Shown here: positions 2,796 to 60,764 of the stretch, piece after piece
Layout: every line of letters begins with the position of its first letter
Position numbering within the stretch: position 1 is the first letter of the stretch
From: Candidatus Omnitrophota bacterium
GTDB taxonomy: Bacteria > Omnitrophota > Gorgyraeia > Gygaellales > Profunditerraquicolaceae
Direction: 5' to 3'
Assembly (NCBI GenBank): GCA_023227985.1
Contig: JALOCB010000002.1
Span: forward strand, 10,956-74,955
DNA length: 64,000 nucleotides
The notes under the pieces: model-generated
Told to the model about the DNA's origin: nothing
The model's input: the letters and a program-made list of their open reading frames with translations, nothing else
Databases searched by the model: none
Made by a program: the position numbers and the translations under genes

Positions 2796-3211
2796 TGAAG
2801 ATAAATGTAAATCACATCCTTCCCCTAGGGACGGTATTTGAAGAGGATATCTCCGCGGAGGCGCTGGAGGCGGGGACTGATATAACAAAGTTCAAAAGCC
2901 CGGTGCATGTTAAGGCCCGGCTGGAAAAAATAACCAACGCGGTAATCGCCGAACTGGAGATAACCGCGCGCGTCAGCCAGGTCTGCGGGCGTTGCCTGAA
3001 AGAATTTGACCAGCTCCTGGATAGGAAGTTAAGGTTGAGTTTCGCTTTGGACCGCGGTATTTACGAACTTGACCTGGATCCGGATATCCGGGAAGATATA
3101 ATCCTGTGGTATCCTTTGCAGCCTTTGTGCAAACCGGATTGCCTGGGATTATGCCCCGGATGCGGGGTGAATCTTAATGAGGCAAAATGCGGTTGTGGGG
3201 ATAAGAAGTAA
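2795..3211 (+). CDS. yceD: YceD/DUF177 family protein (large-subunit rRNA accumulation protein)
   Basis: 138 aa acidic protein with C-terminal CxxC...CxCG cysteine pairs, located immediately upstream of rpmF-plsX as in many bacteria. Confidence 0.7.
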   Translation: MKINVNHILPLGTVFEEDISAEALEAGTDITKFKSPVHVKARLEKITNAVIAELEITARVSQVCGRCLKEFDQLLDRKLRLSFALDRGIYELDLDPDIREDIILWYPLQPLCKPDCLGLCPGCGVNLNEAKCGCGDKK

Positions 3212-3422
3212 ATATCAGGATGTTATGCCCGAAGATAAGCCGGGTATTTATTAACCGTTTTGCCCCTTGCTTAGACGCTTTGTAATTTTCAGCGCTTCGC
3301 GACTGAAATTACATACGCAAGCTGCGGGGTTAATTCGCAGACGCTTCGACGTATGTCGAAGCCCTGAGTTGCGTCGCTCCGGCGGAGTTTTCGTAACTCA
3401 GCTGCTCATTAAGGAGATTAAA
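3212..3422 (+). promoter_or_regulatory. structured ~210 nt leader between yceD and rpmF (multiple stem-loops; candidate promoter/processing/regulatory leader of the rpmF-plsX-fab operon)
   Basis: Hairpins TGTAATTTTCAG/CTGAAATTACA, GCTTCGAC-gtat-GTCGAAGC, CTGAGTT...AACTCAG with inner CTCCG/CGGAG. Confidence 0.45.
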
Positions 3423-13010: not shown

Positions 13011-13088
13011 CCGGGACGGTTCTCAACTGCATCTAAAAGTGTTCCCCCTATGGGGACAGTTTTGTTTGGGTTTGAGGACCGTCCCTGC
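13011..13088 (+). repeat. family C palindromic element (short copy) with GGGACGGTTC terminal inverted repeats, asd-truA spacer
   Basis: CCGGGACGGTTCTCAA ... TTGAGGACCGTCCCTG (1 mismatch) flanking 50 bp. Confidence 0.6.
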
Positions 13089-13094
13089 TAAATT

Positions 13095-13835
13095 ATGCGT
13101 AATATAAGCCTTACTCTGCAATATGAGGGGACAAGGTATAACGGCTGGCAGCGCCAGCGCAATACGCGTAATACTATCCAGGAGATAGCCGAGAAAACTC
13201 TTTCCCGGATACTGCAATCAAAAATATCTTTGATCGCCTGCGGCAGGACGGACGCCGGGGTGCATGCCCAACAGCAAACCGTTAATTTCAAGACTAAGAA
13301 TCCTATCCCCTTAAACAATCTCAAAAAGGCTTTAAATTCGCTTTTGCCTGACGATATAAAAGTCAGCGCTGCGCGGATTGTCCCCGCGGATTTCCACAGC
13401 CAGTATTCCTGCCTTTCCAAAACATACTGTTATACCATTCTAAACCGCGATCATCCTGACGTATTCCAGCGCGGCCGGGTTTACTTTTATCCGCACCGCC
13501 TTGATTTCGCGGCGATGCGCAAGGCCAGCCGGTTCCTGGCCGGGAAACACGATTTTTCTTCTTTTAAGAAAACAGAGATCAGAGGGCCTAAGACCAATGT
13601 GCGCGATATCCGCAGCATCCGCTTGAAGAAAAAGAACGGGTTTATCTATATTGAGATCACCGCCAAGGGTTTTTTGTATAATATGGTCCGGAATATAGCC
13701 GGGACTCTTATTGAGGTCGGCAGGGGTAAAATACGGATAAGCGACCTGCCCGGGATATTATCCGCTAAGGACAGGAGCGCTGCCGGGCCTACTGCCCCGG
13801 CCTGCGGTTTATGTTTGATTAAAGCGAGGTTTTAA
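13095..13835 (+). CDS. truA: tRNA pseudouridine(38-40) synthase TruA
   Basis: 246 aa; YEGTRYNGWQRQ and GRTDAGVHA catalytic Asp motif. Confidence 0.85.
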   Translation: MRNISLTLQYEGTRYNGWQRQRNTRNTIQEIAEKTLSRILQSKISLIACGRTDAGVHAQQQTVNFKTKNPIPLNNLKKALNSLLPDDIKVSAARIVPADFHSQYSCLSKTYCYTILNRDHPDVFQRGRVYFYPHRLDFAAMRKASRFLAGKHDFSSFKKTEIRGPKTNVRDIRSIRLKKKNGFIYIEITAKGFLYNMVRNIAGTLIEVGRGKIRISDLPGILSAKDRSAAGPTAPACGLCLIKARF

Positions 13836-15663: not shown

Positions 15664-15808
15664 GACACCCGCGCAATGGCACCCGACTTTATTGGAATAA
15701 GTCGGTGTGTGCTCGGTAGCACAGAATATGTGCCGGTGTGGTATCTTGAAAAATAGACACCCGGACCAATCGGAATATGGTCCGGTGTCGCATAGGTATG
15801 CGAGGAGG
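15664..15808 (+). repeat. family A palindromic units (ACACCCGN...caatNggaat...NCCGGTGT) ending in GCATAGGTATGC hairpin + GAGGAGG SD upstream of the acyl-CoA dehydrogenase gene
   Basis: GACACCCGGACC-aatcggaatat-GGTCCGGTGTC then GCATaggtATGC, GAGGAGG, ATG 15814; related half-units further upstream. Confidence 0.65.
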
Positions 15809-15813
15809 TTTGA

Positions 15814-19904: not shown

Positions 19905-22900
19905 ATGTATTTTAAAAGATTAGAGATCGTAGGGTTCAAATCGTTTATGGATAAGACTGTTTTGAATTTTGAGCCCGGGGTGACCGCGGTGGTCGGCCCG
20001 AACGGCTGCGGAAAATCCAATATCTTCGACAGCATACGCTGGGTGCTGGGAGAGCAGTCTGCCAAATCCCTGCGCGGCTCGGCGATGGAAGACGTGATCT
20101 TCAACGGTACGGATACCAAGCCGGCGCTGGGTATGGCTGAGGTCAGCCTGACCTTTGACAATGAGCAGCGGCATTTTAATGTGGACCAGGATGAGGTGGT
20201 CATCACCCGCAGGATCTTCCGTTCCGGGGAAAGCGAATACCTGCTGAATAAAAATCTGGGCAGGTTGAAGGATATCCAGGACCTTCTTTTAGGCACGGGT
20301 ATCGGCGCGGAGAGCTATTCCATTATCGCCCAGGGAAAGATCGACCTGATCTTGAGCTCGCGCCCGGAAGACCGGCGCATGGTTTTTGATGAGGCGTCGG
20401 GGATCACCAGGTATAAATCCCAGAAAAGAGAGGCCTTGCGCAGGCTGGAAGAGACCGAACAAAATCTGCTCAGGCTTAATGATATTATAGTGGAAGTAAA
20501 ACGCTCTATCGGCTACCTGGAGAGGCAGGCGAACAAGGCCCGCAGGTTCCAGATCTGTTTTGATGAATTGAAAGCCAAGGAGATAAAGCTGGCCCTGGCG
20601 CAGAAGAAGAATTTGATACAAGAGATCTCCGGGATCACTATATATCTGGACAGCCTGCGTAACAGGGAAGAGGCGTTATTGGCCCAGATAAAAGCGGACG
20701 AGAACAACATTGGCCAGCGCAATATGGAATTGAAGGGGCTGGAGGCGGATCTCGCCAATATGAAGAACGCGATCATGAATTCCGAGAACCTCATCGAGCG
20801 CAACCGGCAGCATACCTCTTTTAACCACGAGCGGATCAAAGAGCTGGGCAATACCAAGACCTATCTTGAATCCCAGATACTGCAGACCCGGGAGCGCGTG
20901 GTTAAGGACGAGGAGAAGCTTAAAGGCCTCAAGGAAGAGCAGGAAGCCATCCGCAAGAGTTTTGAGGAGAAATCTCTGATCTTAAAGACCCATGAAGACA
21001 AGCTTAATGATCTGGTTGGCGGCATAAAGAGGTCTCATGACATTATCGCCCAGGACAAAAAGAACATTATGGACCTGGCTAATATGACCACCCAGGTGAA
21101 GAACGAGCTTACTGATTTTGCTTCCCGGGAACAGGTTTTTATCGCCAGGCAGAAAAGGCTGGACCTGGAAAAGGCCAAGATCGCCGAGGAAAGATCCCAG
21201 GTGGAGGGCAATCTCACGGAATTGGATAAAGAGTTGATGGCCGGCGAAAGCCTGCACCAGGAGCTTTGCGCCAGGATCGCGGCGGCCAAGGCTGAGCTGG
21301 ACGCGGAAACCCTGAAATTAAAACAGGCGGAAGAGGAATTAGAGACCCTGGAAAGGCAGAAGACCGGGCTTATATCGCAGAAGGAATTCTTGGAGAAGCT
21401 GAAGAGCCAGTACGAGGATATCAGCGAATCGATGAACGCGACGATCTATCTGGATAAGCTCCCGGCTGAGACTATCACCGGGCTGGTGGTAAAGCTTAAA
21501 GCCGTGCAGGGCGGCCCTGACCCGGTGAATAACGATCTGTCCGCCCAGGGATACAAAATGTCCGGCGAGGCCAAGCCTATCGACCTGGACGCGCAGAGGG
21601 TTAATGATAAGATTAAGGAGATCGAGGAAAAGATTTTAGGGTTGGCCGGGACTAAACTCCTTCTGGAAACCCGGATCAAGGAATTGACTGCTTCCAACCA
21701 GGCGCTCGATCAGCAGGAGCAGGACCAGGAAATGGCCCTGGCTAACAAGAAGACCGTGCACCACACGATCCTCGAGCAATTCAATAAGATCAAGGAAGAA
21801 GAGGAGCTTATTGCTTTGGAGCTGTCCGATGTCCTGGCGGAATTGAAGAGCCTGGAAGAAAAGATACTGGGACTTAAGGCCAGATTGGCCGGGTTGGAAA
21901 ATAAAGACCGGGAGTTGGAGGCTTCTATACACGCGGAGCAGGAAAGCATCAGCCATAATTCGCGGATAAAAGAAGAAGTCCTGGTGGAGATGACCCAGGT
22001 CAAGACCGTATTGGAGAATCTCGGCCAGCGCCTGAATTCCGAAGATGAAACTTTAAAGGCTTTGGAAGACGCCTGCCGCCAGGGTAACGAGGATATACAT
22101 AACCAGGAGAACAAGATCAAGGAAACTGTTTCCCGGCAGCAGGGTCTGGAAGAGGAGATTAAGAACCTGGACTCGGAGAATCTGGTGCTGGTAAAAGAAA
22201 TAGACGCTCAACGCAATACCCTTTCCGAAGCCGATAAGAAATACGCGGCGATGTCGGAGAGCGTGAACGGCATAATCTCCCGGATCGACGCCAAAAGAAA
22301 CGACCATGAGATATTAAAAGAGAATATTTATTCGGAACAGATGCGCCAGAAAGACATAGAGTTCAAATACCAGACCATAAAAGATAGGATGAACTCGGCA
22401 TATAAGATAGACCTGGACAGGCCGGAGACGATCAGTGCCGCGGATAGCGCTCTGCAAGTTGTGCCTGTTGAGCAAGCCCCTGTTTCCGCGGCTGCGCCGG
22501 AGGATAATAGCCGGGATCAGGCAGATGTCGTTTTTCCTGTTGTCACAGACCCGGTATTATTGTTAACCGGGCCGTCAGCGCCGCAGGAACCGGTAGAGGA
22601 AGAGGTGATTGATGAGGGGCTGTTGTCCGAGGAGATCGAAAAACTTAAAGAGCGCATTGATTCCTACGGCACGGTCAACCTGGTGGCTATAGCCGAATAC
22701 GATGAATTAAAGAAGCGTTATGATTTTCTGAATCAGCAGCAGGCTGATCTTGCCGGGGCTAAGGAATCGTTGCAGGAAGCGATCCGCAAGATCAACCATA
22801 CCACCAAGAAAATGTTTATGGAGACGTTCGAGAAAGTGCGCGAGGAATTCCGCAATTATTTCAAGATGCTCTTTAACGGGGGGGACGCGCAGGTTTACCT

Positions 22901-23303
22901 GATCGATGAGAATGATCCGCTGGAATCCGGCATAGAGTTGGTCTGCCGGCCTCCGGGGAAGAAGCTGCAGAATGTCCTGCTGCTTTCCGGCGGCGAAAAA
23001 TCGCTTTCGGCTATCGCGCTGATCTTCGCCATATTCAAGGTCAAGCCCGCGCCTTTCTGCATCCTTGACGAGATCGACGCCGCGCTGGATGAGTCCAACG
23101 TGGACCGCTTCAGCAGGATGTTCTCGGAATTCACCGGGACCTCGCAGTTCATAGTGATAACTCATAATAAAAGGACGATCGCCAATGCCAATGTAATGTA
23201 CGGTATTACTATGCAGGAATCCGGCGTGTCCAAGATAGTATCGGTTAAGTTCGCGGAATCAAAAACAAAGAGTGAACCCGCGCCCCAGCCAGTCGCCGCT
23301 TAG
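19905..23303 (+). CDS. smc: chromosome segregation protein SMC
   Basis: 1132 aa; N-terminal Walker A GPNGCGKSN, long coiled coils, hinge, C-terminal LSGGEKSL signature and Walker B ILDEIDAALD. Confidence 0.92.
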   Translation: MYFKRLEIVGFKSFMDKTVLNFEPGVTAVVGPNGCGKSNIFDSIRWVLGEQSAKSLRGSAMEDVIFNGTDTKPALGMAEVSLTFDNEQRHFNVDQDEVVITRRIFRSGESEYLLNKNLGRLKDIQDLLLGTGIGAESYSIIAQGKIDLILSSRPEDRRMVFDEASGITRYKSQKREALRRLEETEQNLLRLNDIIVEVKRSIGYLERQANKARRFQICFDELKAKEIKLALAQKKNLIQEISGITIYLDSLRNREEALLAQIKADENNIGQRNMELKGLEADLANMKNAIMNSENLIERNRQHTSFNHERIKELGNTKTYLESQILQTRERVVKDEEKLKGLKEEQEAIRKSFEEKSLILKTHEDKLNDLVGGIKRSHDIIAQDKKNIMDLANMTTQVKNELTDFASREQVFIARQKRLDLEKAKIAEERSQVEGNLTELDKELMAGESLHQELCARIAAAKAELDAETLKLKQAEEELETLERQKTGLISQKEFLEKLKSQYEDISESMNATIYLDKLPAETITGLVVKLKAVQGGPDPVNNDLSAQGYKMSGEAKPIDLDAQRVNDKIKEIEEKILGLAGTKLLLETRIKELTASNQALDQQEQDQEMALANKKTVHHTILEQFNKIKEEEELIALELSDVLAELKSLEEKILGLKARLAGLENKDRELEASIHAEQESISHNSRIKEEVLVEMTQVKTVLENLGQRLNSEDETLKALEDACRQGNEDIHNQENKIKETVSRQQGLEEEIKNLDSENLVLVKEIDAQRNTLSEADKKYAAMSESVNGIISRIDAKRNDHEILKENIYSEQMRQKDIEFKYQTIKDRMNSAYKIDLDRPETISAADSALQVVPVEQAPVSAAAPEDNSRDQADVVFPVVTDPVLLLTGPSAPQEPVEEEVIDEGLLSEEIEKLKERIDSYGTVNLVAIAEYDELKKRYDFLNQQQADLAGAKESLQEAIRKINHTTKKMFMETFEKVREEFRNYFKMLFNGGDAQVYLIDENDPLESGIELVCRPPGKKLQNVLLLSGGEKSLSAIALIFAIFKVKPAPFCILDEIDAALDESNVDRFSRMFSEFTGTSQFIVITHNKRTIANANVMYGITMQESGVSKIVSVKFAESKTKSEPAPQPVAA

Positions 23304-23304
23304 T

Positions 23305-23459
23305 AGGGGACGGTTCCTGCGATCATTATTCATTGCGGCGTAATAAGTTGCAATAAGGCATTTGTCAAGTCCGCAGGAAATGATTTACAATAAATTTGTC
23401 AATAGGCTTGTTGTAATTCGTTGGAGGGTAGTTAGTTAGAGCAAGAGGAACCGTCCCCT
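23305..23459 (+). repeat. family C element: 155 bp bounded by 14-15 bp TIR (T)AGGGGACGGTTCCT / AGGAACCGTCCCCT, between smc and the convergent GGDEF gene
   Basis: Perfect inverted repeat seen directly; internal near-direct repeat TTGCAATAAGGCATTTGTCAA / TTACAATAAATTTGTCAAT. Confidence 0.7.
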
Positions 23460-23464
23460 TTGTT

Positions 23465-24664
23465 TTAGCCGCAGGTGTTGTTCTTGCCTTTTTTCTTCGC
23501 TTCGTAGAGCGCTTTGTCTGAATAAGATCCGAGTTCCGCGGCAGTGTTGCCGTTCTCCGGGAATGTGGCCAGCCCAAGGCTGGTAGTGATGGTCTTTTGG
23601 GGAAGGTTCTCCTGATGGATGAAGGGGTGCTTGGCGATATTCTCCCTGAACCTCTCGGCGATCATAAACGCCTCTTTTTTATCGGTATAAGGCAGGATGA
23701 TCGCGAATTCTTCTCCGCCATAACGGCAGACATAATCCATTTTTCTGGATTGATTCTTGAGCAGGTTGGCCATTTCTTTGAGGATATGATCGCCGGCCTG
23801 GTGGCCGAAGGTGTCGTTGTATACCTTGAAATCGTCGATATCCAGCATAAGCAGGCTGAACTGGGTGGATGTGGCTTTGCTTTTTTCCACTTCCACGCCC
23901 AGCAGGTATTGGAAGTACCCGTGGTTCCAAAGGTTGGTCAGGGAGTCCAGGTGCACCCGGATAACGGTCTTTTCATATAACTGGGAATTTTCGATAGCCA
24001 GGCCTGCCTGGTTGGCGAGCATTCGCAGCATCCGCAGCTCGTCTTTGCCGATAGGTTTATGGGTGATGAAATTATCCGCCATAATGATACCGTTGACCTT
24101 GTCTTTGGCTTTCAGCGGGACCAGGACCACTTCGTCGGACTTAAGGATCTGTATGACCGGGTCATTCCGGTAGTTCTGAATGGTCTCCTGGGTCAGGTGC
24201 AAAGGCATTCCTTCCGTCACGCATAAAGAAAGAAGGTTGTTTTTTTGTTCGCTTAACGGCATTTTGATCAACTGGACCTGTTGGCTAAAACCGGATTTTG
24301 GGGTATTATCCGATACCTTGTAGGCGTTGATCAGGTCTTCCATATCCATTTTTTCCTGTTCGACATAGTTCCAGACCCGGTTGGCTTCTTCCCCTGATTC
24401 CGGGCCGATCGCGGTTTTTCCCTCAATGATATTTTCTTTTTCGTTGACCAGGAAGAGGACCGCCCGGTTGAATCCCAGGCCGATGTGTGCGGTTACCCCG
24501 GTAAGGATGATGTAAAGGATCTCATCCAGTTTGAGGGTGGTGCGCATAGCGTTGGAGATCTCGTAAAGGATCGTCAGCTCGGATTTTGTGCGTTCCAATT
24601 CCTGCTTTATTTTGGCTAATTCGTCCATTGGTTTAAATTTAACACAATTTTGCCTGGCTGTCAA
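23465..24664 (-). CDS. diguanylate cyclase, coiled-coil + GAF + GGDEF domains
   Basis: 399 aa; GGEEF active site (RYGGEEFAI), upstream GAF-like region; only sizeable minus-strand gene in the window. Confidence 0.85.
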   Translation of the reverse strand: MTARQNCVKFKPMDELAKIKQELERTKSELTILYEISNAMRTTLKLDEILYIILTGVTAHIGLGFNRAVLFLVNEKENIIEGKTAIGPESGEEANRVWNYVEQEKMDMEDLINAYKVSDNTPKSGFSQQVQLIKMPLSEQKNNLLSLCVTEGMPLHLTQETIQNYRNDPVIQILKSDEVVLVPLKAKDKVNGIIMADNFITHKPIGKDELRMLRMLANQAGLAIENSQLYEKTVIRVHLDSLTNLWNHGYFQYLLGVEVEKSKATSTQFSLLMLDIDDFKVYNDTFGHQAGDHILKEMANLLKNQSRKMDYVCRYGGEEFAIILPYTDKKEAFMIAERFRENIAKHPFIHQENLPQKTITTSLGLATFPENGNTAAELGSYSDKALYEAKKKGKNNTCG

Positions 24665-24689: not shown

Positions 24690-24982
24690 CCGGTAAATTA
24701 CGTCTATTATATATAGAGAACCAATCCAATTGGAGGCATTGGAATGCAGGATTATCGGCACCCAACCTAAATCATCCGCCATATAAGAATGGCGGGTGTG
24801 TCGCTATTTACGCCAGGAAAGGTTGGTGTCGCAACCGTATGTTAAACCCGATCTTATTGGCGCCTGCCATTTTTGGATATGGCAGCATACGCTTTTGCGT
24901 TAATAGATCGGTGTTGCATCCGTATATTACACCCGATCTTATTGGATAGATCGGTGTTGCATCCGTATGCAAGGGGGGGGGT
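24690..24982 (+). repeat. cluster of family A palindromic units in the divergent GGDEF/recA intergenic region, ending in TGCATCCGTATGCAAGG + G9 tract
   Basis: CCGCCATATAAGAATGGCGG palindrome; two copies of AGATCGGTGTTGCATCCGTAT and CACCCGATCTTATTGG; G-homopolymer 24973-24981. Confidence 0.6.
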
Positions 24983-26127: not shown

Positions 26128-26175
26128 GGGAAGGGTGTTGTGTAACTTGTTGCCACCCTGCGCAGATCGGTTTTG

Positions 26176-26297
26176 CGCCGGTGTTGACTAGGTAGTCACA
26201 CCCAATTTGATTGGTAAGGTTGGTGTTGGGCAAGTAATGCACACCCGGCGCCAATGGGAATTGCGCCGGTGTTGCATTCGTATGCAAGGAGGGTTGG
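26176..26297 (+). repeat. family A palindromic units ending in TGCATTCGTATGCA hairpin + AGGAGGgttGGAGG SD directly upstream of htrA
   Basis: CACACCCGGCGC-caatgggaatt-GCGCCGGTGTTG then GCATtcgtATGCAAGGAGGG, ATG 26301; additional ACACCCAA...TTGGTGTTG unit upstream. Confidence 0.65.
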
Positions 26298-32815: not shown

Positions 32816-32949
32816 TTAAGTCAGCGGAGGCTGTGTCACAAAGCGAGTTCCGCAGGCCGAAGGGCCGTACCGGACGTTCCTATAAATCCGGGTGCAGGCC
32901 GGGAGGCCGAGGATTGTTCGAGCGACGGACACAGCCGCAGATGACTTAA
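32816..32949 (-). repeat. family B MITE-like element (inverted orientation), hisB-hisH spacer
   Basis: TIRs TTAAGTCAGCGGAGGCTGTGTC ... GACACAGCCGCAGATGACTTAA; internal sequence is the reverse complement of the 45713 and 46924 copies. Confidence 0.7.
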
Positions 32950-40296: not shown

Positions 40297-40302
40297 TCAT
40301 TT

Positions 40303-40356
40303 CAAGACCCGGTCTTGTAAGTAATTAGCCGGCAACAAGTTGCGAGATCGGGTCTT
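40303..40356 (+). repeat. family D element CAAGACCCGGTCTTG-N26-GAGATCGGGTCTT, 12 nt upstream of mfd start
   Basis: Seen directly; reverse-complement copy at 60700-60752. Confidence 0.6.
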
Positions 40357-45693: not shown

Positions 45694-45712
45694 TTTTACG
45701 TTAATCGAGGCG

Positions 45713-45885
45713 TTAAGTCAGTGAGGACTGTGTCAGTCGCTCGAACAGTCCTCGACCTTCCGGCCTGCACCCGGGCGTATGGCACCTCGCCATATAGGAG
45801 TGGCGAGTATGTCGCTTTCTGCGTCAGAACGTCCGGTGTGGCCCTGTGGCCAACGAAACTCGCTTTGTGACACAGCCCGCACTGC
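45713..45885 (+). repeat. family B MITE-like element (long copy, ~173 bp) with a nested family A-like insert, followed by a T-run; DUF190-SPFH spacer
   Basis: TTAAGTCAGTGAGGACTGTGTCA...TGACACAGCCCGCACTG; internal CACCCGGGCGTATGGCACCTCGCCATATAGGAGTGGCGA resembles family A units. Confidence 0.7.
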
Positions 45886-46874: not shown

Positions 46875-46923
46875 TTACTGATTTTGCGGGTCCTGGCCTG
46901 CCGGCAGGCAGGCTGTCGAGCCG

Positions 46924-47008
46924 TTAAGTTAGTGAGGCCTGTGTCAGTCGCTCGGACAGTCCTCGGCCTTTGGCCTGCGGAACTCGCTTTGTGACACAGC
47001 CCTCACAT
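46924..47008 (+). repeat. family B MITE-like element (short ~85 bp copy), just upstream of the HicAB islet
   Basis: TTAAGTTAGTGAGGCCTGTGTCAGTCGCTCGGACAGTCCTCGGCC...GGAACTCGCTTTGTGACACAGCCCTCAC; matches the ends and core of the 45713 copy, lacks its middle segment. Confidence 0.7.
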
Positions 47009-48778: not shown

Positions 48779-49962
48779 ATGGCAAAATTGACTGTAAAAG
48801 ACCTGGATTTGAAGAACAAAACTGTATTAATGAGAGCGGATTTTAATGTTCCGCTGGACGCTAACCTCAACATTACTGACGATACCCGCATCCGCGAAAC
48901 TTTACCCACGATCAAGTTTATCCTTGAAAAAGGCGCAAAAAAGCTCGTTCTGATGAGCCATTTAGGCAGGCCGGACGGCAAAAGAGTGGATAAATACAGC
49001 TTGAAACCGGTAGCAGCCAAGCTGGAAGAATTACTCAAAGAAAAAGTAAATTTCCTGAATGATTGCGTTGGCCCGGAAGTCAAGGCCGGAGTGATCAATT
49101 CTAAGGAAAGGATTGTCCTTTTAGAGAACCTTAGATATCACGCAGAAGAAGAGGGCAATAACGCGGATTTCAGCCAGCAGTTAGCCGCATTAGGCGAAGT
49201 TTTCGTTAATGACGCCTTTGGCACAGCGCACCGCGCTCACGCTTCCACAGCCGGAGTGACAGATTCCTTAAATCCGCCGCTGGTTTCCTGCTGGAAAAAG
49301 AGATCAAATATTTAGGCGACGCGGTAAGCAATCCCCAGAAGCCTTTTATGGTCATCCTGGGCGGGGCTAAAGTTTCCGATAAGATCGGGGTTATTGAGAA
49401 TTTACTGCCAAAATGCGAGGCTATTATCATCGGCGGCGGCATGGCTTATACCTTCCTGAAAGCCCAGGGCAAGGCTATCGGTAATTCCAAATTAGAGAAA
49501 GACAAGCTGGACCTGGCTAAATCCATCCTGGATAAAGCCGGCTCTTTGAAGAAAGAGATCGTTCTGCCGGTGGATCATGTGGTAGTTGAGACTGTGGACG
49601 CCAACGCCAAGTTCGAGATCACCTTGACAGACGCGATCCCTGATGGAAAGATCGCAGTGGATATCGGCCCGAAAACCATAGAATTGTTCAATTCCAAATT
49701 AAGCACGGCAAAAACCATTGTCTGGAATGGCCCGCTGGGTATCTTTGAGATGGACGCGTTCAGCAAAGGCACCTCTGAAGTAGGCAAATGCCTGGCAGGG
49801 CTTAAGGCAGTCACTATTATTGGCGGCGGTGATACCGCGGCCGCAGTGGCTAAATTCAAATTACAGGATAAGATGACCCATATTTCCACGGGCGGCGGAG
49901 CAAGCCTGGAATTCTTAGAGGGCAAGAATCTTCCCGGGATCGAGGCATTAACTGATAAATAA
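48779..49962 (+). pseudogene. pgk: phosphoglycerate kinase, interrupted by an apparent single-nucleotide deletion (frameshift near 49262-49267); could be a sequencing artefact
   Basis: ORF 48779-49315 ends ...[23 protein letters not shown]. The -1 frame reads [42 protein letters not shown] and continues into ORF 49348-49962. Canonical Pgk needs GVTD-FLKS, i.e. gatTtcc where the sequence has gattcc. Confidence 0.8.
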
Positions 49963-51253: not shown

Positions 51254-52879
51254 GTGGGCAATGTAATTCCTAAAAATATTGTTATCATAAGAAAGCTGCC
51301 AATCATACTGGTAGCTTTTTTATTTGTTTTGCTTGCCGGGCTGGCTTTCGGCCAGGATAGAGGGGATGCCGTTGTCAGCGCTTCCATAGCCGACGCCCGC
51401 AATCTCCTTCCTATGCTGGCTTCGGACAGCTCTTCCAGCGAGGTAAGCGGGATGATCTTTAACGGCCTGGTCAAATACGATAAAGACCTGAATTTGACCG
51501 GAGACCTGGCGCAAAGCTGGGAGGTGCTGGAAGGCGGTCTGGTCATTATTTTCCATCTCAGAAAGAACATTGTCTGGCAGGACGGGGTCCCTTTTACCGC
51601 TGCTGATGTGGAATTCACCTATAACAAGATGATTGATCCGCAGGTCCGGACTCCATACGGCGGTGATTTTGAGCGGGTCAAGTCCCTGGAAGTCCTGGAC
51701 GACCATAATATCAAGGTAACTTATAAGGAGCCTTTTGTCCCGGGACTGGCCAGTTGGGGGATGTCCATAATCCCAAAGCATCTATTGGAAAAAGAGGACC
51801 TTAATGATACCAAATTCAGCCGTAACCCGGTGGGGACTGGCCCGTATAAATTAAAATCCTGGAAGCCGCAGGAAAAGATTGAGCTGACAGCCAACCCGAG
51901 GTATTTCGAGCATCAGCCGTATATCGACCGGGCAATTACCCGGGTTATCCCTGATGAATCCACGATATTTCTGGAACTGCAGACCCAGGGCGTTGATTCC
52001 TCAGGCCTGAGCCCTTTGCAATACAGCCGCCAGACTGACAGCGAGTTTTTTATAAAATATTACCGTAAGTTCCGGCTGCCGGGTTTTAATTACACATATC
52101 TGGGGTATAATCTGCGCGATTCCAGATTTTCGGACAAGCGGATCAGGCAGGCCTTGAATTACGCGGTGGATAAGAAAGAGATAATTGATATGGTCTTATT
52201 GGGATTCGGCAATATCGCCACCGGTCCGTATGTCCAGCAGTCCTGGGCGTATAACCGGTCGGTGAGCCCGGTGCCTTTCGATCCTAAAAAAGCTAAGCAA
52301 TTGCTCAAGCAGGCTGGCTGGGCAGACAGTGAAAGAAGCGGCTGGCTTGAAAAGAACGGGAGGATCTTTGAGTTTACCATTGTCACCAACCAGGGCAATG
52401 AAGAGCGCTTGAAGGTCGCGGAAATAATCCAGCGCAGGCTTAAGGATATCGGCATCCGGGTAAAGATCAAGGTGGTGGAATGGAGCGTTTTCCTTTCGGA
52501 GGTGATCGATAAAAAGAATTTTGAGGCGATCCTTCTGGGCTGGAGCGTGCCCAGGGAGCCGGATAATTTCGATATTTGGCATTCTTCCAAGACCAGGGAA
52601 GGGGAATTCAATTTCATCGGTTACAAGAATGAAGAGGTGGATAAGCTCCTTCTGGAAGGCCGCAGGACCTTTGACCAGCAGGAAAGGCGCAAGATATACA
52701 ATCGGATCCATACTATAATTTATGATGAACAACCGTATATGTTCCTGTTCACTTCGGAGAGTTTGTCCATACTGCATAAGCGCTTCCAGGGTATCAAGCC
52801 GGCTCCGGCGGGCATTGGCTATAATTTCATCGACTGGTGGGTCAAAACTGCCGATCAGAAATACCGAATAATTAAATAG
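51254..52879 (+). CDS. oppA: ABC transporter substrate-binding protein, family 5 (oligopeptide/dipeptide-type)
   Basis: 541 aa with signal peptide, SBP_bac_5 architecture; GTG start; followed by two permeases and two ATPases. Confidence 0.8.
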   Translation: MGNVIPKNIVIIRKLPIILVAFLFVLLAGLAFGQDRGDAVVSASIADARNLLPMLASDSSSSEVSGMIFNGLVKYDKDLNLTGDLAQSWEVLEGGLVIIFHLRKNIVWQDGVPFTAADVEFTYNKMIDPQVRTPYGGDFERVKSLEVLDDHNIKVTYKEPFVPGLASWGMSIIPKHLLEKEDLNDTKFSRNPVGTGPYKLKSWKPQEKIELTANPRYFEHQPYIDRAITRVIPDESTIFLELQTQGVDSSGLSPLQYSRQTDSEFFIKYYRKFRLPGFNYTYLGYNLRDSRFSDKRIRQALNYAVDKKEIIDMVLLGFGNIATGPYVQQSWAYNRSVSPVPFDPKKAKQLLKQAGWADSERSGWLEKNGRIFEFTIVTNQGNEERLKVAEIIQRRLKDIGIRVKIKVVEWSVFLSEVIDKKNFEAILLGWSVPREPDNFDIWHSSKTREGEFNFIGYKNEEVDKLLLEGRRTFDQQERRKIYNRIHTIIYDEQPYMFLFTSESLSILHKRFQGIKPAPAGIGYNFIDWWVKTADQKYRIIK

Positions 52880-53022
52880 GGGACGGTTCCTCGTTATCTA
52901 ACCTATTAGCAGATATTGAGATATAAGAAGGCTCTTAGCAGGCGAAATGGCATTATTTTTGGCAATTGCGTGGTTGTAACTTAAGGAGTGGGAAGCGGTT
53001 CGGAAGCAAGGAACCGTCCCCT
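52878..53022 (+). repeat. family C element: 145 bp bounded by perfect 15-bp TIR TAGGGGACGGTTCCT / AGGAACCGTCCCCTA, filling the oppA-oppB spacer
   Basis: Left TIR begins within the oppA stop codon TAG; right TIR ends 4 nt before oppB ATG. Confidence 0.7.
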
Positions 53023-53025
53023 AAG

Positions 53026-53997
53026 ATGAGCAAATATATTCTAAAAAGATTATTAGGGATGATACCGGTGCTCTTTGGGATCACTATTATCAGTTTTACC
53101 CTGATACATTTAGCCCCGGGAAAACCGACTACCCTTGACCAGGCGCTGAACCCTAAGGTCTCGCCGGAGATCCGGCTGAAGATGGTTAAGCTCTACGGTT
53201 TGGATAAACCTTTGGTCAGCCAGTACCTGGATTGGGTGAAGAGGCTTTGCGTTCTTGATTTGGGCCGTTCTTTCGGGGATAACCGGCCGGTCCTGGATAA
53301 GATCGTGGAAAGGATCCCTTTGACCCTGGCCATAAATATAAGTTCTTTGATCTTTGTTTTTCTGGTAGCCATACCTGTCGGCATAAAAGCCAGCCTTAAG
53401 CCGGGAAAGGGATTCGATAATTTTACCACTTTCCTGGGGTTTATTCTTTTCGCCATGCCGACTTTCTGGCTGGCTTTGCTGTTGATGCAGTTGCTATGCA
53501 TAACTTTGGGCTGGCTGCCGATCTCCGGGATAAAATCCCTGGACTATGAGTATTTCACTTTAGCGCATAAAGTCTGGGACCGGGTATGGCATTTGATCCT
53601 GCCGGTATTTGTTTCCAGCCTGGGAAGCCTGGCAGTCATCTCGCGTTATATGCGCTCAAGCATGATGGAGGCCTTGAGCCAGCCATATATTTATACTGCC
53701 AGGGCTAAAGGCCTGCCGGAAAGCAAAGTTGTTTATAAGCACGCTTTGCGCAACGCCAGCCTTCCCATAGTCACGATCATCGGTCTTTCCATACCCGGGC
53801 TCTTGGGAGGGAGCGTTATTTTTGAATCGCTCTTCGCCTTGCCCGGTTTGGGCAGGCTGTTCTATGAAGCGGTAATGATGCGGGACTACCCCTTGATCAT
53901 GGCAGAGGTGGCTCTGGGCGCTGTTCTGACTATGCTGGGTAACCTGATCGCGGATATAAGTTACGCTTACGTTGACCCGAGGATACGCTATAAATGA
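53026..53997 (+). CDS. oppB: ABC transporter permease (OppB/DppB type)
   Basis: MSKYILKRLLGMIPVLFGITIISF N-terminus typical of DppB/OppB; start at ATG 53026; ORF-track start at 52966 lies inside a repeat element. Confidence 0.8.
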   Translation: MSKYILKRLLGMIPVLFGITIISFTLIHLAPGKPTTLDQALNPKVSPEIRLKMVKLYGLDKPLVSQYLDWVKRLCVLDLGRSFGDNRPVLDKIVERIPLTLAINISSLIFVFLVAIPVGIKASLKPGKGFDNFTTFLGFILFAMPTFWLALLLMQLLCITLGWLPISGIKSLDYEYFTLAHKVWDRVWHLILPVFVSSLGSLAVISRYMRSSMMEALSQPYIYTARAKGLPESKVVYKHALRNASLPIVTIIGLSIPGLLGGSVIFESLFALPGLGRLFYEAVMMRDYPLIMAEVALGAVLTMLGNLIADISYAYVDPRIRYK

Positions 53998-60699: not shown

Positions 60700-60752
60700 G
60701 AGACCCGATCTCCTAAATCGTTGGGGGATGAAGCGTTAGAAGACCGGGTCTT
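60700..60752 (-). repeat. family D element (reverse-complement orientation), argB-argD spacer, 12 nt upstream of argD start
   Basis: GAGACCCGATCTC-N27-AAGACCGGGTCTT equals the reverse complement of the mfd-upstream element. Confidence 0.6.
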
Positions 60753-60764
60753 GAGAAAGATGGG

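Follow-up and report, generated by a model that had tools for sequence, protein, structure and literature searches.

RAYT-like Y1 transposase genes with terminal inverted repeats that share the octamer GGGGWSAS are known as TIRtrons, and the corresponding transposases as TIRYTs; the associated repeat families are moderately abundant (Di Nocera et al. 2013, PMC3733652). TIRYTs are the TnpA_REP proteins of subclass 2.1, having a C-terminal HTH, and no REP-like sequences were found near the genes of this subclass (Quentin et al. 2018, PMC6006769). The TIRYT class probably corresponds to RAYT Group 1, which is widely distributed and for which moderately frequent flanking 16-mers are described (Bertels et al. 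2017, PMC5581495). The biochemistry of the TIRYTs (subclass 2.1) and their DNA targets are essentially uncharacterised, and only the 8-nt consensus has been published.

The window, which is the whole analysed stretch of 64,000 nucleotides from a Candidatus Omnitrophota MAG, contains intergenic elements that resemble the TIRtron repeats. The latter start with GGGG[AT][CG], bound on either side a Y1 gene that encodes a C-terminal HTH, and are scattered as singles and dimers, with a moderate copy number and a wide, patchy distribution over phyla. There are also differences with the published TIRtrons. The core found here, GGGGACGGTTC[CT], agrees with GGGGWSAS in 7 of the 8 positions and is invariant over 11-12 nt. 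In Bacillota this core is at the apex of a genome-specific hairpin, whereas Quentin et al. report no REP-like sequences. In the window the cores are separated by 117-127 nt, with unrelated interiors, and a cognate gene is not seen in the approximately 82 kb that were read.

The elements can also be compared with three other described systems. The REPINs (RAYT Groups 2 and 3) are likewise paired, inverted short repeats generating a long hairpin, being non-autonomous, extragenic and presumably mobilised by a single-copy Y1 transposase. However, the conserved GTAG of these repeats is absent here (the smc copy alone has GTAG before its core, at 23303-23306), the spacers in the window are long and not shared by the copies, unlike the spacer that is copied within a REPIN family, and the class of the transposase is different. 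The Correia elements (NEMIS) of Neisseria, which have no known transposase, are similar in size (about 100-155 bp), in having terminal inverted repeats, in being intergenic and co-transcribed, and in forming long hairpins that affect mRNA processing, possibly with promoter-like hexamers; they differ in their shared interior, 26-bp terminal repeats and TA duplication, and their sequences are unrelated to the window elements. The PATEs of the IS200/IS605 family are non-coding derivatives of Y1 elements for which no target duplication is expected, but these end in subterminal hairpins that are dissimilar and directly oriented, and not in inverted repeats.

Inverted-repeat elements of the window

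The features of the three sites are the following (coordinates refer to the window):

13013-13085, + strand: older, degenerate member, a single long imperfect hairpin between asd (stop codon 13005-13007) and truA (ATG at 13095)
19905-23303, + strand: smc, whose 3' end adjoins the smc/GGDEF element
23304-23318, + strand: left arm of the smc/GGDEF element, TAGGGGACGGTTCCT, beginning 1 nt past the TAG (23301-23303) that ends smc
23319-23445, no strand: interior ("cargo") of the smc/GGDEF element, 127 nt, non-coding, 38% G+C
23446-23459, - strand: right arm, AGGAACCGTCCCCT, the inverted copy, followed by TTGTTTT, with the GGDEF stop codon 5 nt further
23465-24664, - strand: GAF-GGDEF gene, convergent with smc (stop codon 23465-23467), whose 3' end adjoins the element
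51254-52879, + strand: gene of an oppA-like substrate-binding protein (SBP_bac_5 in the orthologues)
52877-52891, + strand: left arm of the oppA/oppB element, TAGGGGACGGTTCCT, whose bases 1-3 form the stop codon of oppA
52892-53008, no strand: interior of the oppA/oppB element, 117 nt, 42% G+C, unrelated to the smc/GGDEF interior
53009-53023, - strand: right arm, AGGAACCGTCCCCTA, ending 2 nt before the oppB ATG
53026-53997, + strand: gene of an oppB-like permease

The smc/GGDEF and oppA/oppB elements have perfect arms. Direct reading and a pattern search show that all 14 nt of AGGGGACGGTTCCT at 23305-23318 are complementary to 23446-23459 without mismatch, the arms being 127 nt apart, and no other perfect pair of at least 14 nt whose arms are separated by more than 100 nt is among the inverted repeats listed; the opp arm pair is absent from that listing and was established by eye and by a pattern search. 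In the opp pair (52877-52891 and 53009-53023) the complementarity of TAGGGGACGGTTCCT is perfect over 15 nt, with 117 nt between the arms. The perfect inverted termini that the first-pass annotation had assigned to the two long copies are thereby confirmed. Its description of three copies sharing 12-15 bp termini holds for these two copies, but the third copy is degenerate, older and common to relatives. The window holds two perfect dimers and one degenerate dimer, all intergenic, with element sizes of 147-156 nt for the perfect ones. The exact 12-mer GGGGACGGTTCC is present four times in the window, whereas by our own arithmetic about 0.008 occurrences of any one 12-mer would be expected when both strands of 64 kb are counted.

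At the asd/truA site the left arm, CGGGACGGTTCT, has two mismatches and the right arm, GGACCGTCCC, has lost one base. The outer arms of this hairpin are GGGACGGTTCTCAA and TTGAGGACCGTCCC, and its apex reads GTTCCCC-CTATG-GGGGACAG, in which GGGGACAG (13052-13059) matches GGGGWSAS in all eight positions. In the arms of the perfect copies the corresponding octamer, GGGGACGG, matches in 7 of 8, having a G and not an A at position 7.

The two interiors cannot be aligned with each other, as their local alignment score of 20 is within the range of shuffled sequences (16.1 +/- 2.1, maximum 22), in agreement with the earlier view that the centres of the long copies are not homologous. The similarity extends beyond the arms at one end only, where the reverse complement of 23435-23459 equals 52878-52902 at 22 of 25 positions. 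Both interiors are A+T-rich when compared with the 49.7% G+C of the whole window. The smc/GGDEF interior contains the near-direct repeat with -35-like TTGTCA motifs that had been noticed before (23348-23368 and 23385-23403), and a sigma-70-like TTGTCA-18-TACAAT (23362-23391, + strand) is within this region. A run of UUUGUUUU is found 3' of the right arm at this site. When the full elements were compared by BLAST with the loci L001-L211, the arms alone matched, and remnants of a transposase gene were rejected as the source of the interiors, tblastn with four Y1 proteins being negative in and near the elements. TGGCAT-N-TTGGCA in the opp interior was also rejected as a sigma-54 promoter, because its spacing is wrong (GG-N11-GC).

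If transcribed, both long copies are predicted to fold as stem-closed structures, as the first-pass annotation had anticipated: the arms are paired in the minimum-free-energy folds (z-scores of -3.4 to -4.2), and the arm duplex alone amounts to -28 to -29 kcal/mol. Every arm is within 5 nt of a stop codon, in sense orientation for each adjacent gene, and the only Shine-Dalgarno-like sequence 5' of the oppB ATG, AGGA, is in the opp right arm. With the arms 117-127 nt apart these elements are not canonical intrinsic terminators; the terminator scan of the smc copy finds only a small hairpin inside the left arm, with a weakly T-rich tail, and nothing is reported for the opp copy. Rfam gives no family at the gathering score for the window, and no match at E <= 1 for either element.

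The conserved inverted ends with unrelated interiors give these elements a superficial likeness to gene cassettes, and it had been suggested that they resemble attC sites of integrons, with variable cargo. Such a site, or another site of a tyrosine recombinase, is highly implausible: the arms lack RYYYAAC/GTTRRRY core sites (R' and R''), the elements are single, between housekeeping genes and not in a cassette array, and no integrase was noticed in the window, where the Pfam matches of selected ORFs are to housekeeping genes.

The window has other repeats as well. A different hairpin repeat, GGTGTTG...(C)ACACC(C), forms clusters at 24820-24978 and 26134-26293 and is also found at 15783-15809. 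The clusters are upstream of recA (25057) and of an HtrA-like protease gene (26301), and the last unit, TTGCATNCGTATGCAAGG, precedes the ribosome-binding site, being immediately in front of the AGGAGG in the case of 26301 and some 80 nt ahead of the start codon in that of recA. A second doublet family (40302-40355 and 60701-60754) has the arms AAGACCCGGTCTT and AGACCCGATCT, each being a small palindrome, in inverted order between the two sites and with unrelated spacers of about 28 nt, a design like that of the smc and opp elements. A Band_7/SPFH gene and a gene of a HicB-like antitoxin are flanked by a longer intergenic repeat family, with copies of about 55-130 nt that are 83-97% identical and occur in either orientation (32822-32949, 45705-45884 and 46916-47006), in a region where the genes of the relatives differ. 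Finally, the phosphoglycerate kinase gene (48779-49962) is split into two ORFs by a frameshift near 49268-49275; the two ORFs cover Pfam PGK positions 1-158 and 185-379, and the other frame reads straight through, so that either the MAG is misassembled here or an essential gene is truly frameshifted.

The three sites in relatives

The convergent arrangement of smc and the GGDEF gene is kept in nine metagenomic relatives, in which the SMC C-terminus is 53-83% identical. The distance between the two stop codons is -22 to +35 nt in these relatives, compared with 161 nt in the window, where the element accounts for about 156 nt between smc and the diguanylate-cyclase gene. At the opp site, oppA and oppB overlap by ATGA in the relatives with 95% and 88% identical OppB, and no motif copy is found in 20 kb of their syntenic DNA. 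Since close relatives have short or overlapping junctions without copies, this sequence comparison shows that both perfect copies are lineage-specific insertions, and the smc-site element is a recent, non-coding one. This is also in agreement with the earlier suggestions of a MITE or of a site recognised by a protein.

The asd/truA hairpin has another history. Two relatives, whose TruA is 80% and 84% identical, have a hairpin in the corresponding position, which makes three species in all, and in one of these relatives the arms are altered on both sides (GGGGACGCTTCCC and GGGAAGCGTCCCC); judged from its distribution, this hairpin is old, unlike the two perfect copies. Contigs encoding an identical TruA have a 100% identical asd/truA spacer, such that the comparison at strain level is uninformative, and an apparent indel of 33 nt after truA only reflects differing gene-start calls.

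The bases that flank the copies bear on the type of insertion. The opp copy has TA on both sides (TA...TA), a junction compatible with insertion into the TA of an ancestral ...AAATAAGATG. In the smc copy the flanks are TA...TT, such that a putative TA duplication is seen at only one of the two perfect copies. L134, L136, L010, L021 and L029 also contain related dimers, and the copies of the relatives L134 and L136 have no flanking dinucleotide in common. The size, the terminal inverted repeats, the intergenic position and the TA flanks of the opp copy would suit a classical MITE of an IS with a DDE transposase (for example, IS630/Tc1-like, with TA duplication), the arms being its terminal inverted repeats and the enzyme being encoded elsewhere in the genome. 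We regard this as distinctly unlikely in view of the flanks of the smc, L134 and L136 copies and of the unrelated interiors; in addition, no DDE transposase gene is beside the motif copies examined, versus the seven core-bounded Y1 loci described below.

It is also conceivable that the structure of the RNA is what is selected, for mRNA stabilisation, termination or as an RNase III site, and that the arms are shared through conversion or convergence. This would fit with the position and orientation of the arms at the stop codons, with the UUUGUUUU run at the smc site and with the conservation of the asd/truA hairpin in three species, including its compensatory arm changes, as well as with the sense bias near stop codons in other genomes (see below). 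As an explanation of the elements it is nevertheless unlikely: at two of the three sites close relatives are without any spacer, no Rfam family is matched even at E <= 1, and an identical 14-mer at unlinked sites and at the ends of transposase genes of other phyla is not expected from selection on pairing alone. A role of the RNA as a secondary, exapted function is compatible with insertion by a TIRYT, as preferred below.

Two further relatives are relevant for the smc/GGDEF junction. L128 has a perfect hairpin at this junction (3119-3220), with 28-nt arms, AAAAACGGGGTCAGAATTATTTATTTCC, that start with GGGGTCAG, the published TIRYT motif; the convergent-gene junction has thus been colonised independently. 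The closest relative by SMC (L139, 83%) has a partial, different Y1_Tnp gene (1900-2462) with the HUH motif MPTHIHLVL. This gene is some 1.6 kb 3' of smc and has palindromes of its own on the upstream side, CCTCCACCG...CGGTGGAGG, such that RAYT-like genes do exist among the relatives, together with different repeat families.

In the metagenome 3300037067, three contigs from this organism (L216, L122 and L219) break in or near oppC, smc and YceD, respectively, which may reflect assembly trouble around repeats.

The core motif and Y1 transposase genes

The species-representative genomes contain at least 120 loci that match AGGGGACGGTTCCT exactly. Many of the single 14-mer matches outside the Bacillota look like chance occurrences inside coding sequence, but the structured motif is present in Bacillota, some Actinomycetota, a cyanobacterium and a gammaproteobacterium. 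The first-pass annotation had allowed for the case of only three copies in paralogous contexts; instead, the motif family is widespread across phyla. The copies are mostly intergenic.

In these genomes some of the exact copies are at the apex of a hairpin: a directly flanking Watson-Crick stem of at least 5 bp is present in 51 of 196 exact copies, whereas among 2400 control positions there are 34 with such a stem. These hairpins conform to stem-A-GGGGACGGTTC[CT]-T-stem', with a core that is invariant over 11-12 nt in the Bacillota and in the Omnitrophota genome. The stems are alike within a genome and unlike between genomes (GTGAGTCA, CAGACAA, TGGAATA, GTGAACG and others), and the covariation score is 0.82 on 35 distinct hairpins versus 0.10-0.15 for slid controls; the outer pairs of these 35 hairpins are mostly paired, even though they were not used in the hairpin selection. 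The arms in the window are without such local genome-specific stems, and their core is at the base of a long-range stem and not at a hairpin apex. The bases before the core are ACAG, TCAG, CAAG and others in Bacillota, and ATAG in the opp copy; a variant core, GGGGACAGTTC, occurs in L214 and L010. For the hairpins that are no more than about 30 nt from a stop codon, sense orientation prevails by 13:3 (p = 0.02), a bias that is only suggestive, being based on crude ORF calls.

These hairpins do not correspond to canonical terminators, as most of those in Bacillota are without a T run and the loop would be 13 nt, nor to CGTC- or GTAG-tagged REPs, which have a terminal tag and loops of 4-5 nt, the CGTC families being in other phyla and the conserved GTAG being absent here. 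CsrA or anti-Shine-Dalgarno decoys, K-turns, SECIS elements, self-cleaving ribozymes and operators (CIRCE, Rex) were rejected, as either the sequence did not fit or the variable stems spoke against them. For 15 motif loci Rfam gives nothing at the gathering score apart from an unrelated cobalamin riboswitch. A literature search for the motif string found nothing relevant, and the RepRanger paper contains no matching consensus.

In all seven loci examined (L050, L101, L114 and L212-L215) the core flanks genes of IS200-like and RAYT-like Y1 transposases with a C-terminal HTH, in line with the lead to an HUH nuclease that had been proposed from the window alone. Three of these loci (L050, L101 and L114) were selected by the motif, and the other four by protein similarity alone (homologues of Sporomusa, Petroclostridium, Geosporobacter and a Desulfitobacteriaceae member). 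The proteins of the three motif-selected loci match Pfam PF01797 (Y1_Tnp; E values of 1e-15 to 4e-19) and the NCBIfam family REP_Tyr_transpos (66-87 bits); HTH matches are weak in L101 and L050, and none is reported for L114. The motif is about 35-45 nt upstream of the start codon in L050 and L114 and about 300 nt upstream in L101, and in L050 and L101 it is also present just 3' of the stop codon.

The geometry of the four similarity-selected genes is very similar. All four have an upstream sense hairpin, stem-[AG]GGGACGGTTC[CT]-stem, in which some copies have up to 2 mismatches to the 12-mer, and all four have an inverted hairpin downstream, with the core 3 nt after the stop codon and the stop codon itself within the outer stem. 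In L213-L215 the 3' stem of the upstream hairpin runs into the TTGAC -35 box of a sigma-70-like promoter. L212 has three gene copies, each bounded by the core. In this genome, Sporomusa acidovorans, a hairpin-gene-hairpin unit of 881 nt is present three times within 10 kb, at 98.8-99.1% identity, and the identity ends exactly at the outer foot of both hairpins; no target duplication is found at the three copies. From these sharp-ended, near-identical copies it follows that the bounded unit itself is mobile. Homologues on plasmids of Sporomusa termitida and Rhodospirillum rubrum have inverted repeats of the GGGGTCAG type.

As a separate observation, the region 1-13100 of L212 (CP155571.1) contains the three TIRtron copies and several solo hairpins, TGAGTCAAGGGACGGTTCCTTGACTCA, among gene fragments with filamentous-haemagglutinin repeats, which suggests that the TIRtron was at some time active inside, or has rearranged, this haemagglutinin-repeat array.

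In the window itself, tblastn with the four Y1 proteins gives no match, and in about 18 kb beyond the window ends there is no motif copy and the genes called there are without a Y1_Tnp domain.

Proposed mobilisation in trans and predicted effects on the mRNA

It is probable, although by no means certain, that the smc and opp elements are miniature, gene-less derivatives of TIRtrons, which have been moved in trans by a TIRYT. This is the most economical reading because the layout is the same, with a core in forward orientation at one end and an inverted core at the other, enclosing 117-127 nt of non-coding DNA instead of a gene. The 14-15 nt arms correspond to the conserved core at the ends of the gene of this transposase class. 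Enzymes of the IS200/IS605 and RAYT families act on single-stranded DNA, and by analogy the arms would pair with each other on the single strand, or each arm would fold into a small AGGGG/TTCCT hairpin; a TIRYT acting in trans would cut and rejoin at the arms, such that the DNA between the inverted cores is moved without target duplication. We infer that a TIRYT has acted in this way on the window copies in this genome.

Several observations weigh against this reading. No Y1 gene is found in the window or in about 18 kb beyond its ends, the arms are without the genome-specific stems of the Bacillota, GGGGACGG agrees with GGGGWSAS in only 7 of 8 positions, and the TA flanks of the opp copy might instead be the target duplication of a DDE-type element. 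The Y1 gene of L139, which is the only one seen in the relatives, is bounded by a different palindrome, and the interiors are unrelated, unlike those of REPINs and classical MITEs, which copy the interior. The unrelated interiors could be accounted for if the two elements are deletion derivatives of different parents, if arbitrary DNA was captured, or if the elements were assembled stepwise.

When transcribed, the arms would form a stem of about -28 kcal/mol, closing the spacer directly after the upstream stop codon, and this stem would protect the 3' ends of mRNAs. At the smc/GGDEF site it would be directly after the stop codon for both convergent genes, and together with UUUGUUUU it may aid termination. 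At the opp site the insertion would supply the oppA stop codon, and the 15-bp stem would sequester the AGGA before oppB. As the only AGGA upstream of oppB is inside this stem, the oppB start region would be opened by ribosomes that terminate on the left arm. The translation of oppB would then depend on ribosomes finishing oppA, replacing the ancestral ATGA coupling.

A wider, doubtful proposal is that GGGGACGGTTC[CT] is the site of one TIRYT clade that has spread between phyla and moves any short DNA between inverted cores, the hosts keeping the resulting cargo-variable elements as modules for 3' ends and translational coupling. If so, these would be portable elements bringing their own stop codon (TAG), a Shine-Dalgarno-like AGGA and a closing stem, and the spread of the clade would cover Bacillota, Omnitrophota, Actinomycetota, Cyanobacteria and Proteobacteria.

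The elements are well explained as belonging to a known, little-studied kind, the TIRYT-associated inverted-repeat elements, and not to a new system. Modestly new is the candidate recognition site, being an invariant core of 11-12 nt that is at the apex of a co-varying stem and bounds the gene across Bacillota. The architecture of the gene with its ends is also defined, with an upstream hairpin that overlaps the -35 box and a stop codon in the downstream outer stem, and Sporomusa acidovorans provides a system in which the whole unit is multi-copy. The comparison extends this repeat class to Candidatus Omnitrophota, and it explains the two odd long spacers of the window as recent insertions, with a prediction on the coupling of oppA and oppB.
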